Part shown: piece by piece, positions 551 to 52,023 of the stretch | Position numbering within the stretch: position 1 is the first letter of the stretch | How the letters are laid out: every line of letters starts with the position of its first letter | Assembly (NCBI GenBank): GCA_965223505.1 | Contig: CBDCWP010000021.1 | Coordinates: 431,237-495,236 of the forward strand | Reading direction: 5' to 3' | Length of the DNA: 64,000 nt | DNA from: Planctomycetota bacterium | GTDB taxonomy: Bacteria; Planctomycetota; PLA2; JAEUHO01 | Position numbers and translations under genes: made by a program | Notes under the pieces: model-generated | Seen by the model: only the letters and a program-made list of their open reading frames with translations | Database searches by the model: none | What the model was told of the DNA's origin: nothing

Positions 551-1057
551 CTACTGCGGTCCGACGCTGATGAAGAAGAAGCCGTCGTCCACCGGGTTGC
601 CGGCGGCGTCGTTCACCGTGAACGAGAAGCTCCCGGCGCCGTCGAATCCGTTGGTGTGATAGACGGGCGATGCCGAGTTGGCGTGATCGACGACGAACGA
701 CGGACGGCCACCGAAGGGCTGGGTGTACGTCACGGTGTAGCTCCCGACGCCGTTGCGCGTCGCGGTGAACCCGTCTCCGTGGGAGACGACCCCGGTGGAG
801 GTCACGCCGCCCCATACGACGCGCAGATCCGTGCCGGAATCCCGTACGTAGCGCGCGTCGTGGTCGTGCGCGTTGCCCGTGTCCGCGATGTGCGCTTCGA
901 GCGCGGCGGTATTGGTGGCCTGTTGCGCCTCGAGCGCCGCGACACGGCTGCCCAGGTCGGTGCCGGTGCGCGTGCGTGCCTGGACGAACGAGGGCACGAT
1001 CAGCACCCCCACGACGGCGGCTACGAACAAGATGAGAGAAGTGCGTTTGCGTGTCAT
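551..1057 (-). CDS. Secreted protein with short coiled coil and fibre-tip-like beta domain
   Basis: AAGGAGG SD before ATG 1057; signal peptide; HIADTGNAHDHDARY; WGGVTSTG...GSYTVTYTQPF. Confidence 0.75.
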   Translation of the reverse strand: MTRKRTSLILFVAAVVGVLIVPSFVQARTRTGTDLGSRVAALEAQQATNTAALEAHIADTGNAHDHDARYVRDSGTDLRVVWGGVTSTGVVSHGDGFTATRNGVGSYTVTYTQPFGGRPSFVVDHANSASPVYHTNGFDGAGSFSFTVNDAAGNPVDDGFFFISVGPQ

Positions 1058-1237
1058 CGAATCCCTCCTTCCCGATGGAGTCTGTGTGCCGTAGATCATG
1101 TCGAATGCGCGGTTCGCTGCGCAATCAGAATGTGCCTCCAGCGATCGAATAGGGCAGTTTCAGGGCATCTTGAGGCCGTTACGTGTCAAGTCGTGGCCCC
1201 GCCGGACGGGCGATGCCCCGTGCGGTACGCTCTCGCG

Positions 1238-2377
1238 ATGCGCAGAACCCTCTCGATTTGGCTCCTGCTTCTCGCTGCATTCGGCAACGTTCACGGGAAC
1301 CCGGACGAGAACGCTCCCGTCCTTCGACCGTTGCCGCTCGTCGAGGGCGTGCGAGACGTGTTGAATCGCAAAGGCGACCTTGCGGCGCTGAAGAAGACCG
1401 ACGAGTACCGCCGCGCCAAGCACGTCGGTCTGGACCTGGCCGACTACGACGGCGATCCCGTCGTCGCGCACGGGATGCGCGATGGAACACTGTTCTACGT
1501 CTTCTACAAGAAGATCGAGCGCGCCTACGCACGGCGTGTTTGGGTCGTGCAGCGCATCAAACGCACCGAGCGCAACTGGCGGAAGGGCGTCGACGAGCCG
1601 GAGACGAAGGTCACCTACCAGGTCGAGGCGTTCAAGCTCTTCAGCGGTGAGCAGAAGCGCGGTGACCAGCATCACGGCGGCTACGGGATCAAGGACTTCG
1701 TTCGACGGGAGATCGTCAAGGAGTACGAGATCGGGTTCGCCGACATTCCGGGGCTCGCGGAAGGCGATCCGTGGCCCTGGAAGAAATCGACGCTGTTCGA
1801 GTACATCGCCCGCTACGGCCGAAGTGACGAGGTCTATCGAAAGGTCTCGTTCCACCGCTCGGTGACGTGGTCGCTGACGGTCACGCTCGACGCGGCCGGC
1901 AATTATCGCGTCTTGGCGCCCGAGCTGGGAATCGACGTGCCCGTGAAACGCACGGACCCCGCCCGCACGTTGCCCGAGCCCCTGACCGTCGGAGCGTCGC
2001 TGGTGCTCGTTCGCGGCGTCGGGCTCGAAGGCACGCGCGCGGACGAGGGCTGGTTCGACGACTACGTCGAGCGGGCGGGCAAGGTGCTGCAGGAGGAGCG
2101 CTTCGCGTCGGGCCACTCGAACACGATTCTCGCCGCCGGGTTGATGGCGAACCGGCGCAAGGACGGCTCGCTCAACACGCTGCAGACCCGGGCGGGCTTC
2201 GCCGGCCGCACCAAGGAAGGGATCGCCGTCGGTTCGCCGCGTTGGGCGGTGCTCAAGGCCTACGGCCAGCCGAAGGACGCGAAGGTCGGCGCGGCATGGT
2301 GGCACTACGGCGACATCGGGTTCTGGTTCGACGGATTGGACCGTGTGGGGCGCTTCTACGTTCGGGCGAAACGCTAG
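1238..2377 (+). CDS. Hypothetical secreted protein
   Basis: Signal peptide MRRTLSIWLLLLAAFGNVHG within ORF 656..2377; normal codon usage from 1238. Confidence 0.75.
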   Translation: MRRTLSIWLLLLAAFGNVHGNPDENAPVLRPLPLVEGVRDVLNRKGDLAALKKTDEYRRAKHVGLDLADYDGDPVVAHGMRDGTLFYVFYKKIERAYARRVWVVQRIKRTERNWRKGVDEPETKVTYQVEAFKLFSGEQKRGDQHHGGYGIKDFVRREIVKEYEIGFADIPGLAEGDPWPWKKSTLFEYIARYGRSDEVYRKVSFHRSVTWSLTVTLDAAGNYRVLAPELGIDVPVKRTDPARTLPEPLTVGASLVLVRGVGLEGTRADEGWFDDYVERAGKVLQEERFASGHSNTILAAGLMANRRKDGSLNTLQTRAGFAGRTKEGIAVGSPRWAVLKAYGQPKDAKVGAAWWHYGDIGFWFDGLDRVGRFYVRAKR

Positions 2378-2395: not shown

Positions 2396-3343
2396 TCAAG
2401 CGCCGTCGGGCTTGCCATCCGTTTCCGGCTTCGGCGCGAACTGGAAGGGGACCGTCAAGTCGCCATTCATTTCGAAGGGCGTCGGTGCCGGGAGCGCGAT
2501 CTTCGCGTGCGTCGTTCCCTCGGGGGGCTGCACCGCAGCCCCGGCGGCGCCGCCTCACCCATACCGCATCGCCCCCTCGGCGAGCACGTCGCCGTCGGCG
2601 TTCAAGCACTGCCACGTCAGGCCGATGCGCTTGCCCCTGCGGTAGAGCGTGTTGCCCAGCCGCTTCTCCGCCTGGAAGACGACGCCGATCCGGTGCTGCC
2701 CCTTGCGCTCGAACGCACGCGCCTTCACCACGAGGCCGGTCCGCACGGCGCAGTGCGTCGTTTCGTCGGCCGTCACCTCGATTTCGCGGAAGGACGGCGA
2801 GGTCGTGGACCAGATCCACTCGGTTCCGTCCTTCTCCGCCTCGATGTGCCGGTAGCCGGTCACCTGGTACGAACCCACGGGCAACGGACGCTCGCGTTGC
2901 TCGTCATCGGGCGACCACCGCAGGCGGTACGTCTGTGACCTGTCGCCCTTGCGGAAGAGGAACAGCTCTCCATTGGCGATGGTCGACGTCACGAGCCCCG
3001 TCGGCGTCTCGTCGCCGTGCGAGGCCGTCGCAGACACGACGCAGGTCGGCTTGCCCTCTGCGTCGTTCTCGAGGTACTTGATCAAGGCCTCACGGGCCTC
3101 GGGCGGGGTGCCCGTTCACGAGGTTTCGGTCACCTGCCGCAGGAACGCGCGATCGGTCTCGAAGGTCGTGTCCGGCACGGTGTGGCACTTGGCGCAGGTG
3201 TGATGCCACGCTTCCTTCGCCTTGGCCGTCCAATCGACCGCGTCCTCGTCGGTCTTGTCGTCGGCGGCGAGCTCCATCATGCCGATGGAGAACCACGTGG
3301 CGACGACGACGGCGAGCATGCTTGCGCGTACCGGAATGCTCAT
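2396..3343 (-). CDS. Putative selenoprotein: exported c-type cytochrome (CAKCH) domain protein with two in-frame UGA (3116-3118, 2555-2557), 315 aa
   Basis: GGAGG SD, ATG 3343, signal peptide; ORFs 3116..3646 and 2555..3085 are in one frame; 52 more sense codons follow the second TGA up to TGA 2396-2398; a hairpin follows each UGA. Confidence 0.75.
2524..2542 (-). promoter_or_regulatory. SECIS-like hairpin
   Basis: GGGGCTGC-GGT-GCAGCCCC, perfect 8-bp stem, loop 20 nt 3' of UGA 2555-2557. Confidence 0.7.
3083..3101 (-). promoter_or_regulatory. SECIS-like hairpin
   Basis: CGAGGCC-CGTGA-GGCCTTG, loop 21 nt 3' of UGA 3116-3118. Confidence 0.55.
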
Positions 3344-3630
3344 GACGACCTCCGGCTTCCACGATAGCAGCCTGGTGCGGCGGCCCCGGAGGCGCGGCTG
3401 CGGACGGAGGCGAGGCTCGCCGCCGCCGCGGTGGGGGCGCCTCCCGCGCCGGCGGACAGGCCGTAGCCGCCCGTTAGGGCTCACGTGGAATTCAGCGGTC
3501 ATCGCGAGTGGCCGCTGCCGAGAACTTCGGACAGACTCCCGTTGCCGGTGCTCCTCTCTCACCCGGAGGAGCGCCGGTGTGGACTTGTCAGTGTGGGTTT
3601 GCGGTGCGTCTCCTAGGGGGGGACACACCC

Positions 3631-4248
3631 GTGTCAGTTGAGACAATCGCCACTGCGCGGCCCCGGCCTGCGCAGAGTGGCTTCAGTTTGCTCGAGGTGC
3701 TCATCGGCGCCGTCGTGCTCGCCGTCGCGTTGCTGGGCCATCTCGCCAGCACCGGAACCGAGCACCGTCTGGCGGAGCAGCAGCGCGTTCGCAGCCAGAT
3801 GCTGCAGACGACGCGCCAGTTCATGGAGCGGCTGCGCTCCGACGAGAACTGGGACACGCTCTACGATCGCCTGCGGACCGCGCAGTTCTCGCTGACCGTC
3901 GACGGCAAGGCCGGCACGGCGCTCGACAGCGGGAAGCTCGCGTGGCAGTTGACCGACTACTACCCGGAGATCGTCGTCCCCGAAACGCTCAGCGACATGC
4001 GAGTCCGCGTGGAGGTCCCCGCGACGCCCACGATGGTCAGTGGGGCACTCGGCATGCGGCTGCGCGAGGACGCGAGTCTCGAACAGTTCGGGCTCCCCGC
4101 GGATCTCGACGGAACCGGGACGATTACGTCCGATGTGTGCGACGACAGCTACGTCGCGCTGCCGGTGGTCGTCACGTTTCGCTGGGAGCTTCGCGGCCAA
4201 GCGGCGCGTGAGATGCGGGTCGCCACGTGGCTCAGGGGGAATCGATAG
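3631..4248 (+). CDS. Prepilin-type N-terminal cleavage/methylation protein (PilV-like)
   Basis: QSG|FSLLEVLIGAVVLAVALLG class III signal; GTG start inferred. Confidence 0.85.
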   Translation: MSVETIATARPRPAQSGFSLLEVLIGAVVLAVALLGHLASTGTEHRLAEQQRVRSQMLQTTRQFMERLRSDENWDTLYDRLRTAQFSLTVDGKAGTALDSGKLAWQLTDYYPEIVVPETLSDMRVRVEVPATPTMVSGALGMRLREDASLEQFGLPADLDGTGTITSDVCDDSYVALPVVVTFRWELRGQAAREMRVATWLRGNR

Positions 4249-4833
4249 ATGTCCAAGTCCACTGCTTCACAGCGCGGCTTCACGTACCTCGAAGTGCTGA
4301 TCGTCATGGTGATCGCGGGAACGGCGCTCGCCGGTCTCGGCAAGTCCCTCACGACCGCTCAGGATCTCTCGAGCGAGACGCACCTTCTGGGGCAGGCGCA
4401 TGCCGAGCATCGCAGGAATTTCGAGGCGATCGGCAACGCGTTGCGCTCCGTCGACATCAACACCCTCACCGGTTTCGTCGACAAGACGGTGGACGGCGAC
4501 GTGATCAGCGTCGCCGCCAACCCGACGTTCGCCCGCGTCATCGGCACGCAGGACGACGCTCGTGTCTACAGCGACACCGAAGAACTTCGCTGGGAGAGCG
4601 TTCCCACGGTCATCGACGGCATCGCGAACCCCGGCCAAGTGAGCTTGGTCACGCTCAACAACGACGGAACCGTCAAGAGCAAGGTCATGATCGGCAAGAA
4701 CGTACCGTCCGGCGGTTTCCTGCTGCGCCAGGAAGGGCGCACGCTCGTCATCGCACTCACCACCTACTACGTCCTTCCCGGCCGCGAGCCGTATGTCGTG
4801 AGCAGCGAAAGCGCTGTGTCGCTGAGGAACTAG
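4249..4833 (+). CDS. Prepilin-type protein (PilW-like)
   Basis: QRG|FTYLEVLIVMVIAG. Confidence 0.85.
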   Translation: MSKSTASQRGFTYLEVLIVMVIAGTALAGLGKSLTTAQDLSSETHLLGQAHAEHRRNFEAIGNALRSVDINTLTGFVDKTVDGDVISVAANPTFARVIGTQDDARVYSDTEELRWESVPTVIDGIANPGQVSLVTLNNDGTVKSKVMIGKNVPSGGFLLRQEGRTLVIALTTYYVLPGREPYVVSSESAVSLRN

Positions 4834-4835
4834 TC

Positions 4836-6080
4836 ATGGACACCAAATCGAAGAGCCGCCGGACCACCGAGTCGGGGATGATGATCGTGGTCGTCGCGTT
4901 CGTCGTCGTCTTGATGGCGGGCCTTTCCCTCGGCTTCTTGACCACGGGCCTTTCCGAGCGGCAGTCCGTCATCCACCACGAAACCAGCATGGAGGCCCTC
5001 GAGATCACGGAGATGGGTCTCGTGAAAGCCGAGTCGATGATCCGCGGACAGACCGCCAAGGACAGCGACTCGATCAGCGGCGCGTACGCCGACGGGACGT
5101 TCGAGGTGGGGATGGAGCACGACCCCGACCGGCCCCGTCGCTGGGTGCTGACCGGCGAGGCCTCGAAGGGGCACAGCCAGCGTCGCGTCGAGGTGGAGCT
5201 GCGCATCTTCTTCGACGGGCTGTTCAACCACGGCATGTTCGGGAAGCGCTCGCTGGACATCCGCTCGACCTCGACGACCGACTCCTACGACAGCCGTCTG
5301 GGTACCTATGCCTCGCAGGCCGTCAATGTCGACGCATACGGCGTGCACGCGGACGGCGATGCGCACGTCGGCAGCAACGGGAGCGTCACGCTGAGCGGTA
5401 CGGGAATCGTGCGCGGTGACGCCATCCCGGGTCCGCTGAGCACGACGACGGTGAACGGTACTTCCTCGGTCGATGGGGATCAGATCCCCCTGCAAGACGA
5501 GCTGGACGTCCCCGACATCCGCTACGCCGTGTTCGCCGACGCGCTGGCGAACAACAACAACGCGTCCATCGACGGCACGCTGCCCGGCGTGACCTACAAC
5601 GCCGCAACCTACAAGCTCAGCGTGAAGGCCGGCGCGACCCTCGTGCTCGACCCGGGGACGTACTTCTTCACCGATCTCGTCCTCACGGGCGGTTCCAACA
5701 TCGTTCTGACCGGCCCGGTCAAGTTCTACGTGACGGGACGCTTCAACCTGGGCGGCGGTTCCATCCTCAATAGCAGCATGCGGGCCAAGGACCTTCAGGT
5801 GTACGCGCACCCGTATGCGTTGCCCGCGGGCCACGCACCGGGCACCCACCAGCTGATCGTGAACGGCCAGTCCGCCACGGCGATGGCCGTGTACGCGCCC
5901 GAGCGCGACGTGCTGATCGACGGCGGCGCGCCGTTCTTCGGCGCCGTGGTCGGCCGCGACGTCGTCATCCAGGGTGATTCGCAATTCCACTACGACCGGG
6001 AGCTGGGCGACATCTTCGGCGAGAGCACGGCGACCGTCGAGCGCCTCTACTGGCGCGAGCTCTCGGTACCTGCACGGTAG
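4836..6080 (+). CDS. PilX-like minor pilin with C-terminal beta-helix/adhesin-like domain
   Basis: ESG|MMIVVVAF (no Glu5); DSYDS motif; FHYD..L...YWRE C-terminus. Confidence 0.75.
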   Translation: MDTKSKSRRTTESGMMIVVVAFVVVLMAGLSLGFLTTGLSERQSVIHHETSMEALEITEMGLVKAESMIRGQTAKDSDSISGAYADGTFEVGMEHDPDRPRRWVLTGEASKGHSQRRVEVELRIFFDGLFNHGMFGKRSLDIRSTSTTDSYDSRLGTYASQAVNVDAYGVHADGDAHVGSNGSVTLSGTGIVRGDAIPGPLSTTTVNGTSSVDGDQIPLQDELDVPDIRYAVFADALANNNNASIDGTLPGVTYNAATYKLSVKAGATLVLDPGTYFFTDLVLTGGSNIVLTGPVKFYVTGRFNLGGGSILNSSMRAKDLQVYAHPYALPAGHAPGTHQLIVNGQSATAMAVYAPERDVLIDGGAPFFGAVVGRDVVIQGDSQFHYDRELGDIFGESTATVERLYWRELSVPAR

Positions 6081-6082
6081 AC

Positions 6083-6964
6083 GTGCGCGCGTTCGCCCGC
6101 CTCCTTCTGGTCATGCTCGCCGCGGCGCCCTCCTGGGCTTCGCCGGTGTCGGCGAAACCGCTTGCTACGGCCGAGGTGCGCACGGCACTGGCGAAGGCGT
6201 ACCGCCAGGGCCCCGACGCCATGGTCGCGCTCTGCGCCGAGCTCGGCCGTGCCGGCGGCGTAGCGGCCGTCGAGGGTCTGGTCGAGCTGCACGACCATCG
6301 CTCGGGCCGTGAGTACGAGAAGGCCCGCATCGCGGCGCTCGAAGCGCTGGCGCAGATCGGACTTCGAAGCGAACGCGCCCACAAGCGTCTCGCCGAGTCG
6401 CTTGCCGGCTCCACGAGCGAGCGCCTGGCGGCGATCACCGCGCTGGGCCGGCTCGGCGACGGCCGCGACATGCGTACGCTGCTCACCTTCGCTCGCGACG
6501 AAAGCCGGGAGATCAAGCTCGCGGCGTTTCGTTCTCTCAAGACCCTCACGGGCGCCTCGGTTCCGTTCGTCTACGCCAGGTGGACACACTGGTGGCGTAC
6601 GACGAAGAGGAGCGGCATGGGCCCGCTCTACGCCGCACTCGACGCGCTCGAAGAGGACCCGAAAGACGAAGAGCACTGGCAGAAGCACGTCACCACGATC
6701 GCCGAGAACGGTTGGATCGACCTCGCCGAGGTCGAGATGGCCATCGAGGAATGGCTGGCCGGCTCCGACGCGCTGCTACAAGCCGCCGCCAGTCACCTGG
6801 CCGGCAAGTTCCGTCTCCTCGACTACGGGCCGCGCATCGCCAAGATCCGCGTGCACGGCTTCGATCCGCCTCGGCTCGAGGACGAGATCCGGAAGGCGCT
6901 GAAGGACCTCGGCATGACAGCGGCGCTCGACGCGCGCGTCGCCGCCGAGAAGCTCCCGAAGTAG
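6083..6964 (+). CDS. Secreted HEAT-repeat protein
   Basis: Signal peptide; RIAALEALAQIG and RLAAITALGRLG repeats. Confidence 0.75.
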   Translation: MRAFARLLLVMLAAAPSWASPVSAKPLATAEVRTALAKAYRQGPDAMVALCAELGRAGGVAAVEGLVELHDHRSGREYEKARIAALEALAQIGLRSERAHKRLAESLAGSTSERLAAITALGRLGDGRDMRTLLTFARDESREIKLAAFRSLKTLTGASVPFVYARWTHWWRTTKRSGMGPLYAALDALEEDPKDEEHWQKHVTTIAENGWIDLAEVEMAIEEWLAGSDALLQAAASHLAGKFRLLDYGPRIAKIRVHGFDPPRLEDEIRKALKDLGMTAALDARVAAEKLPK

Positions 6965-51854: not shown

Positions 51855-51933
51855 TCCCTGAGGTTCCCGCTCTCTCTCCGTCCGGCCGCATCGACGCAGT
51901 AACTAGGTGGTATAAGGACGCCGCGACCGCCGC

Positions 51934-52023
51934 GGAGAGATGGCAGAGTGGTCGAATGCGCTGGCTTGCTAAGCCAGTGTACCCGTCAGGGTACCCCGGG
52001 TTCGAATCCCGGTCTCTCCGCCA
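51934..52023 (+). tRNA. tRNA-Ser(GCT)
   Basis: GGAGAGA...TCTCTCC-G-CCA; anticodon arm CTGGC-TTGCTAA-GCCAG; long variable arm; TTCGAATC. Confidence 0.96.

Follow-up and report, generated by a model that had tools for sequence, protein, structure and literature searches.

The kinds of protein to which the one described here is related are the c-type cytochromes with a His/Cys-ligated haem and the selenoproteins. The former include SoxA of SoxAX, TsdA haem 1, NaxLS, PsbV2 and DsrJ, and in SoxAX and TsdA the ligand Cys participates in two-electron sulfur chemistry; the sulfur carrier SoxY, which has an immunoglobulin (Ig)-like fold and a C-terminal GGCGG arm, is the partner of a His/Cys haem protein. 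As for the selenoproteins, a 2026 inventory of 119 prokaryotic families has three entries with a haem motif, namely ExtKL, an octahaem cytochrome and the GSU2204 family (PMC13188914), and a 2022 review holds, in its accessible part, only a Cytochrome_C554-type entry. A natural cytochrome P450 ligated by selenocysteine (Sec), of subfamily M, is described in a December 2024 preprint (PMC11703216), so that a precedent exists for Sec-haem ligation as such. Here we analyse a gene on the minus strand of a 64,000-nucleotide stretch of DNA from a Planctomycetota bacterium (the window; G+C 66-71%), in which a sequence-only reading had noticed a CxxCH motif followed by a possible Sec near the place of a distal haem ligand. 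On its sequence features the stretch from 2396 to 3343 encodes one protein of ~315 residues, predicted to be exported, with two selenocysteines, Sec76 and Sec263; it belongs to a new, large two-Sec family for which there is no Pfam or NCBIfam model. That residue 76, as Sec or Cys, is the sixth ligand of a haem iron is in our view the best reading, and we give it a probability of about one half. The features of the gene, in window coordinates, are as follows.

2396-3343, minus strand: complete selenoprotein coding sequence of 315 codons including two Sec codons, with the ATG at 3341-3343 and the final stop TGA at 2396-2398
3263-3343, minus strand: predicted N-terminal export signal, approximately residues 1-27 (MSIPVRASMLAVVVATWFSIGMMELAA), its boundary placed from the sequence
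3065-3241, minus strand: predicted minimal three-helix, class-I-like cytochrome c domain, residues ~35-93, from the AlphaFold2 model and profile
3182-3196, minus strand: CAKCH haem c attachment motif, residues 50-54, with C, C and H invariant in 45 of 45 N-terminal domains (N-domains)
3116-3118, minus strand: TGA for Sec76, a Sec/Cys column in an invariant T-x-[U/C] motif, 21 residues past His54
3084-3100, minus strand: hairpin 1, resembling a Sec insertion sequence (SECIS), with a 6-base-pair stem and a CGUGA loop, starting 19 nucleotides into the UGA-anchored alignment
2738-3007, minus strand: first Ig-like beta-sandwich, precursor residues ~113-202 (model residues 88-177 in VIA-align)
2432-2737, minus strand: second Ig-like beta-sandwich, precursor residues ~203-304 (model residues 178-279 in VIA-align), spanning the second TGA
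2555-2557, minus strand: TGA for Sec263, an apparent stop that is a conserved Sec codon, in a Y-G-U-G-G loop (YG-U-GGGG)
2524-2542, minus strand: SECIS-like hairpin 2, with an 8-base-pair stem and a GGU loop, 15 nucleotides past the second UGA

Read from the ATG, the frame runs through a hydrophobic N-terminus, C50-A-K-C-H54, 21 residues (TVPDTTFETDRAFLRQVTETS), the TGA at codon 76, 10 residues (TGTPPEAREA) and LIKYL, and a further 186 codons separate the TGA at codon 76 from the second one (2555-2557); hydrophobic N-termini of comparable kind are found in homologues of the gene. The sequence-only reading had written this arrangement as CAKCH-x21-U-x9-LIKYL, of which the 21-residue spacing and the in-frame TGA stand and the x9 does not, the actual spacer being 10 residues. 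Direct translation also bore out its remark that Met, His and Cys are absent between CAKCH and LIKYL, a segment that lies within 3065-3200.

When 401 genomes of the phylum were searched in six frames, the protein turned up in 46 of them, with 49 matches; 30 of the matches have one internal TGA, across which the frame is open and conserved, and the other 19 have none. At column 76 the 30 best loci have TGA in 26 cases and Cys in four; adding 17 further loci brought the figures to 30 Sec and 17 Cys among 47 genome copies, always 21 residues past the His, and the maximum-likelihood tree requires at least two switches between Sec and Cys at this column. When homologues were checked here, as the sequence-only reading had proposed, these two residues were thus the only ones seen among the genome copies. 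Over 23 Sec forms, hairpin 1 has 93.5% paired cells and eight compensatory cells, a result equalled by none of 500 shuffles and approached by no slid register (68.8% or less). In three Sec forms that carry an insert of 4 residues, the first UGA is followed by another hairpin, and hairpin 1 was not found in the four Cys forms among the 30 best loci. The SECIS of selD in the same genome resembles hairpin 1, with a similar stem (AAGGCC/GGCCUU) at a similar distance.

The second TGA, at which the gene appears to stop, is shared by all 47 genome copies, the 30 homologues and the 17 further copies alike. It is followed by a conserved in-frame tail of 35-60 codons with the pattern YG-U-GGGG..A.V.P....GPF..G in the 30 homologues; in the 17 further loci the context of Sec263 takes the variant form ..V[TSI]-U-G[AS].. 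and the GPF tail is unchanged. Hairpin 2 has 93.5% paired cells over 30 sequences, with 46 compensatory cells in six of its eight pairs, and again no shuffle among 500 equalled the observed value and slid registers reached at most 59.1%. Through both TGAs the 30 homologues align along the entire 315-residue length. This second conserved Sec codon in the place of an apparent stop means that the true gene is 2396-3343, with both Sec76 and Sec263.

The machinery for reading these codons is complete in the genome. The tRNA-Sec scores 69.2 bits against a cut-off of 47 and lies on another contig (G000:C43), and SelB (335.7 bits), SelA (507.2 bits) and SelD (338.1 bits) are, like the tRNA, above their curated cut-offs; selA and selD are adjacent (G000:C8:36851-39232, loci L017 and L018), and the SelD of the genome is itself a selenoprotein with its own TGA in a GGU-AAK motif. 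A SelA match at E<=1e-30 was found in 44 of the 46 carrier genomes versus 290 of 401 genomes overall, and the two carriers lacking one are assemblies of 410 and 990 contigs. With a Sec/Cys column, a covarying SECIS hairpin and this machinery, the earlier proposal that codon 76 is a genuine Sec codon is upheld, and on the same kinds of sequence evidence we predict that both UGAs are decoded as Sec. In the window itself, what lies at 51933-52020 (plus strand) is probably another long-arm tRNA: against the tRNA-Sec model it scores 41.7 bits, short of the cut-off of 47.

Compared with the described selenoproteins, the gene is like that of the Sec-ligated P450 in being truncated at a TGA with a SECIS downstream, and the P450 has the natural Sec axial haem ligand that we propose here from sequence (PMC11703216). 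Subfamily M, however, binds a b-type haem in a P450 fold, with no protein ligand other than Sec (PMC11703216), whereas the present family is predicted to be exported and to hold a covalent c-type haem with His as its proximal ligand. With ExtKL (NF040886), the GSU2204 family (NF041027) and the octahaem tetrathionate-reductase-family cytochrome (TIGR04315), it shares the combination of Sec and CxxCH, export, and being known from sequence only; those proteins, however, are multihaem or porins and have one Sec (PMC13188914). None of the three NCBIfam models matched the 315-residue protein, and the two-Sec family is absent from the inventory of 119 families (PMC13188914).

The evidence for a haem domain comes from the N-terminus. 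Only C, C and H, the T-x-[U/C] motif and one Arg are invariant across 45 N-domains, and the spacing from His54 to residue 76 is x21 in all 45. A profile of these N-domains searched against the PDB matched mitochondrial cytochrome c at an E-value of 1.9e-4 over two short stretches: profile positions 3-19 correspond to cytochrome c residues 4-20 (the N-terminal helix and CxxCH), and positions 45-60 to residues 87-102 (the C-terminal helix). Of the 60 PDB matches listed for the N-domain profile, 59 were c-type cytochromes; the best match of the whole-protein profile reached only E 0.45. Ten of 30 members matched Pfam PF13442, but weakly and below threshold (E 0.0094 at best), and an NCBIfam scan of the 315-residue protein gave only CytoC_perox (E 0.077, 12.2 bits against a cut-off of 150); no Pfam or NCBIfam family reached threshold for the selenoprotein or its members. 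A gene for cytochrome c assembly is present in the genome (PF01578, 81.1 bits). The AlphaFold2 model has three helices within its N-terminal 70 residues (at 13-25, 37-48 and 56-67 in model numbering), with CxxCH at the end of helix 1 and Sec76 in the loop joining helices 2 and 3. The proposal of a class I-type cytochrome c domain, made from the sequence alone, is thus supported by a profile match across both flanking helices, and we take the N-terminus to be a minimal domain of this type, with haem attachment predicted.

The best sequence match of this domain is to the mitochondrial and class I cytochromes c (1hrc, 2b4z), unlike which the family has Sec or Cys in place of the distal Met, the middle of the fold being deleted. 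It is like the His/Cys cytochromes c in a periplasmic c-type haem, predicted in our case, in a class-I-like domain and in an invariant chalcogen in the distal-Met loop. It differs from them in having Sec in most members, a shorter domain (x21), two fused Ig-like domains and a second invariant Sec, and no SoxA, TsdA or NaxLS family appeared in the Pfam and NCBIfam scans or among the 60 PDB matches listed.

AlphaFold2 was run on the protein as far as the second TGA, which gave a predicted local distance difference test score (pLDDT) of 91.6, and then on the full-length protein with 30 homologues, giving a mean pLDDT of 91.0 and a predicted template modelling score (pTM) of 0.85. The first Ig-like sandwich (pLDDT 94-98) matches, for example, 4ecn_A at Z 6.9 in VIA-align; the best match of the second, a generic one, is 4zjg_A (Z 7.5, root-mean-square deviation 2.6 over 76 residues). 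Three strands that follow Sec263 in the model (pLDDT 90-97) complete the second sandwich and leave Sec263 in a loop. Foldseek searches against the PDB, together with VIA-align, returned generic Ig-like sandwiches, the rows covering mainly model residues 176-279 and not the haem domain. The resemblance to SoxY is one of analogy only, a Gly-flanked reactive chalcogen on an Ig-like beta-sandwich. In contrast to the terminal arm of SoxY, YG-U-GGGG is internal and is followed by ~40-50 residues that include three strands; there was no Pfam SoxY match at E<=0.1 among 30 members, and SoxY was not among the fold matches listed.

To place the two chalcogen positions in a wider sample, we searched the family profile against 1.84 billion cluster representatives, of which 1242 matched at E<=1e-3, with E<=1e-30 for 154, and dissected the best 150. 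Of these, 118 start after column 76, being cut by the first UGA, and 32 cover CxxCH. All 32 that cover the motif have Cys at column 76. At column 263, 140 of the 150 end, and the remaining 10 continue past it with G, S, R, P, A, N, E or T; Cys at this column was found in none of these best 150 of the 1242. Residue 263 would thus be either Sec or lost, never Cys, an unusual pattern that points to chemistry beyond sulfur. The nine read-through relatives that lack Sec263 and cover the haem domain all keep both CxxCH and Cys76, from which it follows that the conservation of residue 76 cannot rest on pairing with residue 263. By these alignments, position 76 is conserved as strictly as the haem-binding motif and independently of residue 263. 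The stop-free representatives with a non-chalcogen residue in place of Sec263 are P0036, P0039, P0042, P0046, P0058, P0059, P0063, P0073, P0090 and P0072, and in two of them, P0042 and P0058, a Cys stands three positions before column 263 (G-C-T-Y).

Which residue caps the haem iron can be approached from the same profile alignment. Sec76 falls on profile position 39 and residue 87 of cytochrome c aligns six positions further on, which we take to put Sec76 next to Met80, the distal haem ligand of mitochondrial cytochrome c; the T-x-U motif presumably has its likeness in Thr78-Lys79-Met80 of that protein. No conserved distal Met or His precedes the C-terminal helix in the 45 N-domains, the column being Sec or Cys, and the alignment of 30 homologues shows no other conserved Met, His or Lys in any part of the protein. 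Because residue 76 occupies the ligand loop and there is no conserved Met, His or Lys, the most economical reading is that it serves as the sixth ligand. Should it bind the iron, the protein would be the first of the c-type cytochromes whose axial ligand is a selenocysteine. Full-text literature searches, subscription journals being outside their coverage, found no Sec-ligated c-type cytochrome, and the P450 of the 2024 preprint was the sole natural case of Sec-haem ligation that we met in print (PMC11703216).

As a whole, the explanation that we consider best, and to which we would give roughly even odds from the sequence, is a two-Sec exported protein in which Sec76 is the haem ligand and Sec263 the reactive residue. 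In this mechanism Sec76, replaced by Cys in a minority of relatives, would lie in the distal-Met loop as the sixth iron ligand, and the resulting haem c, with His and selenolate as its ligands, would have its counterparts in the His/Cys haems of SoxA, TsdA and NaxLS. The haem-bound chalcogenolate and Sec263 could then cooperate, e.g., if residue 76 left the iron in a redox-linked step and a Se-Se or Se-S bond formed. Such cooperation would couple one-electron transfer by the haem to two-electron chemistry on a periplasmic substrate. We propose this cooperative two-electron step because of the analogy with SoxAX and TsdA. The substrate might be a reactive sulfur or selenium species, or else a soft metal or metalloid, so that a role in S/Se chemistry is one possibility; in a divergent subfamily, electrons may pass to or from a multihaem cytochrome encoded next door. 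The boldest version, which we offer as a tentative possibility, would be a His/selenolate cytochrome c whose Sec76 switches between the iron and a diselenide with Sec263, acting as a self-contained haem-plus-diselenide catalyst that turns one-electron respiratory currency into two-electron reactions of periplasmic S/Se compounds or soft metals, and being widespread in Planctomycetota and invisible to annotation.

Several points weigh against this explanation. No Pfam or NCBIfam cytochrome model reaches threshold for the family, and the x21 spacing is far below that of characterised class I cytochromes. The ligand role of residue 76 is proposed from sequence position and conservation. Sec263 is more strictly Sec than residue 76 (47 of 47 genome copies); it lies between glycines, as in the loops that hold haem-thiolate ligands, with a near-invariant Tyr at -2, and either of these residues is a possible ligand. 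The gene has no informative neighbour in the window, and 29 of the 41 loci examined (the window and 40 homologue loci, up to 7 kb on each side) are free of metal, ArsR or multihaem neighbours. The sequence-only reading had proposed a His/Sec-ligated haem and had named, as a finding that would speak against it, another conserved residue able to supply the ligand; the loop position and the invariant Sec/Cys column favour its proposal, and the invariant U263 and the near-invariant Tyr at -2 go part of the way towards the competing residue that it had in mind.

One rival account leaves the iron without Sec altogether. The haem would be five-coordinate, water-ligated or a mere electron relay, and Sec76 and Sec263 would form a diselenide (a selenylsulfide in the Cys76 forms) in a periplasmic chalcogen oxidoreductase. 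It draws on the two strictly conserved chalcogens, with no other conserved Cys outside CxxCH, and on the statement in the inventory that redox enzymes with U/C pairs make up most of the known selenoproteins (PMC13188914). We nonetheless think it unlikely, as the nine relatives with no chalcogen at 263 retain Cys76 without exception and residue 76 is found in the canonical axial-ligand loop.

That loop also bears on a different assignment of the ligand, in which Sec263 or Tyr261 would reach the haem from the Ig-like domain as the distal ligand and residue 76 would be a second-sphere or resolving chalcogen. The TGA at 263 in every genome copy, with an invariant Gly next to it, would fit this arrangement, as would the Tyr at -2, which is at least 90% conserved, and the pTM of 0.85, which suggests a fixed arrangement of the domains. 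A haem ligand is, however, normally indispensable, and the 10 of 150 representatives that replace residue 263, including the nine that demonstrably keep CxxCH and Cys76, appear to dispense with it; moreover, it is residue 76 and not residue 263 that occupies the canonical ligand loop. We regard this arrangement as rather improbable and retain residue 76 as the preferred ligand.

Among the 41 loci there is no universal neighbour or operon partner. Pairs of the CusA/CusB type for heavy-metal efflux occur in four loci, in three of them co-directional with the family gene and adjacent to it, and one of these loci encodes a triple-YHS protein as well; a P1B ATPase is found in one locus, and ArsR-family regulators in seven, of which the six scanned were all confirmed by Pfam. 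In six loci of the divergent CxxCHC subfamily (Cys76, Sec263), a multihaem cytochrome is encoded directly upstream, four of them with the compact gene order arsR, multihaem cytochrome, family gene (L106, L108, L109 and L110; ~1-3 kb upstream). Taken together, this context weakly suggests periplasmic electron transfer tied to metal, metalloid or reactive-chalcogen stress, and the neighbours point to metal or metalloid stress at least as much as to S/Se chemistry. The metal-related genes are also what would commend a haem-free protein in which CxxCH, Sec76 and Sec263 form a site of very high affinity for a soft metal (Cu, Ag or Hg) and which would serve in the periplasm, alongside Cus-type efflux, as a chaperone or sink: the CusA/CusB neighbours, three pairs of them same-strand and adjacent, the YHS-domain protein, the P1B ATPase and the seven ArsR-type regulators could all be read in this way. 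We consider it very improbable, given that the class I cytochrome profile match spans both flanking helices and so extends beyond CxxCH, that the His of CxxCH is invariant in all 45 N-domains, that six loci have a multihaem cytochrome partner upstream and that the genome carries a cytochrome c assembly gene.

Whatever the ligand, this is a large family with two Sec residues, and its annotation is poor. Standard gene calling splits the gene into up to three pieces. A word-indexed protein search identified 26 relatives, all of them fragments of 161-182 residues that cover the post-TGA part only, which implies that gene callers stop at the first TGA; the truncation of 140 of the 150 dissected representatives means that the family is systematically misannotated. 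The nearest ESM Atlas clusters, of 633 and 278 members, are annotated as 'hypothetical protein' and are commonest in Planctomycetota. The remaining alternative, that the TGAs are ordinary stops and the feature an artefact, be it of a sequencing error, a pseudogene or a set of two or three separate small genes, has these split calls, fragmentary relatives and truncated representatives on its side, but it can practically be discounted, since frame, sequence and hairpins are kept across both TGAs in dozens of genomes of many families (which excludes a sequencing error), Cys forms and stop-free full-length relatives exist, and the read-through protein folds confidently with a tail that completes a domain.

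Among the database relatives, P0033 (642 residues) has the Cys76 form behind an unrelated N-terminal region of ~420 residues and ends at YG, just before the second Sec codon. A lone match in a Rhodanobacter metagenome-assembled genome, obtained when a single fragment was searched against genome contigs, was judged spurious.

An antisense open reading frame (ORF) lies over the selenoprotein gene at 2507-3367 (plus strand), and ORFs occupy the same place in homologue loci; the 'conserved' clusters that such antisense ORFs form were rejected as high-G+C artefacts over a conserved gene. In the window the selenoprotein gene stands alone, convergent with an ORF of no assigned family and divergent from pseudopilin genes. 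The convergent ORF, at 656-2377 (plus strand), has 572 residues, matches no Pfam family at E<=0.001 and has an internal Met followed by a signal-like segment. The divergent genes at 3508-6080 (plus strand) have prepilin-type N-terminal methylation motifs, with PF07963 in the ORFs at 3508-4245 and 4249-4830; they look like a pseudopilin or type II secretion-like operon, and a HEAT-repeat protein is encoded next to them at 6083-6961.

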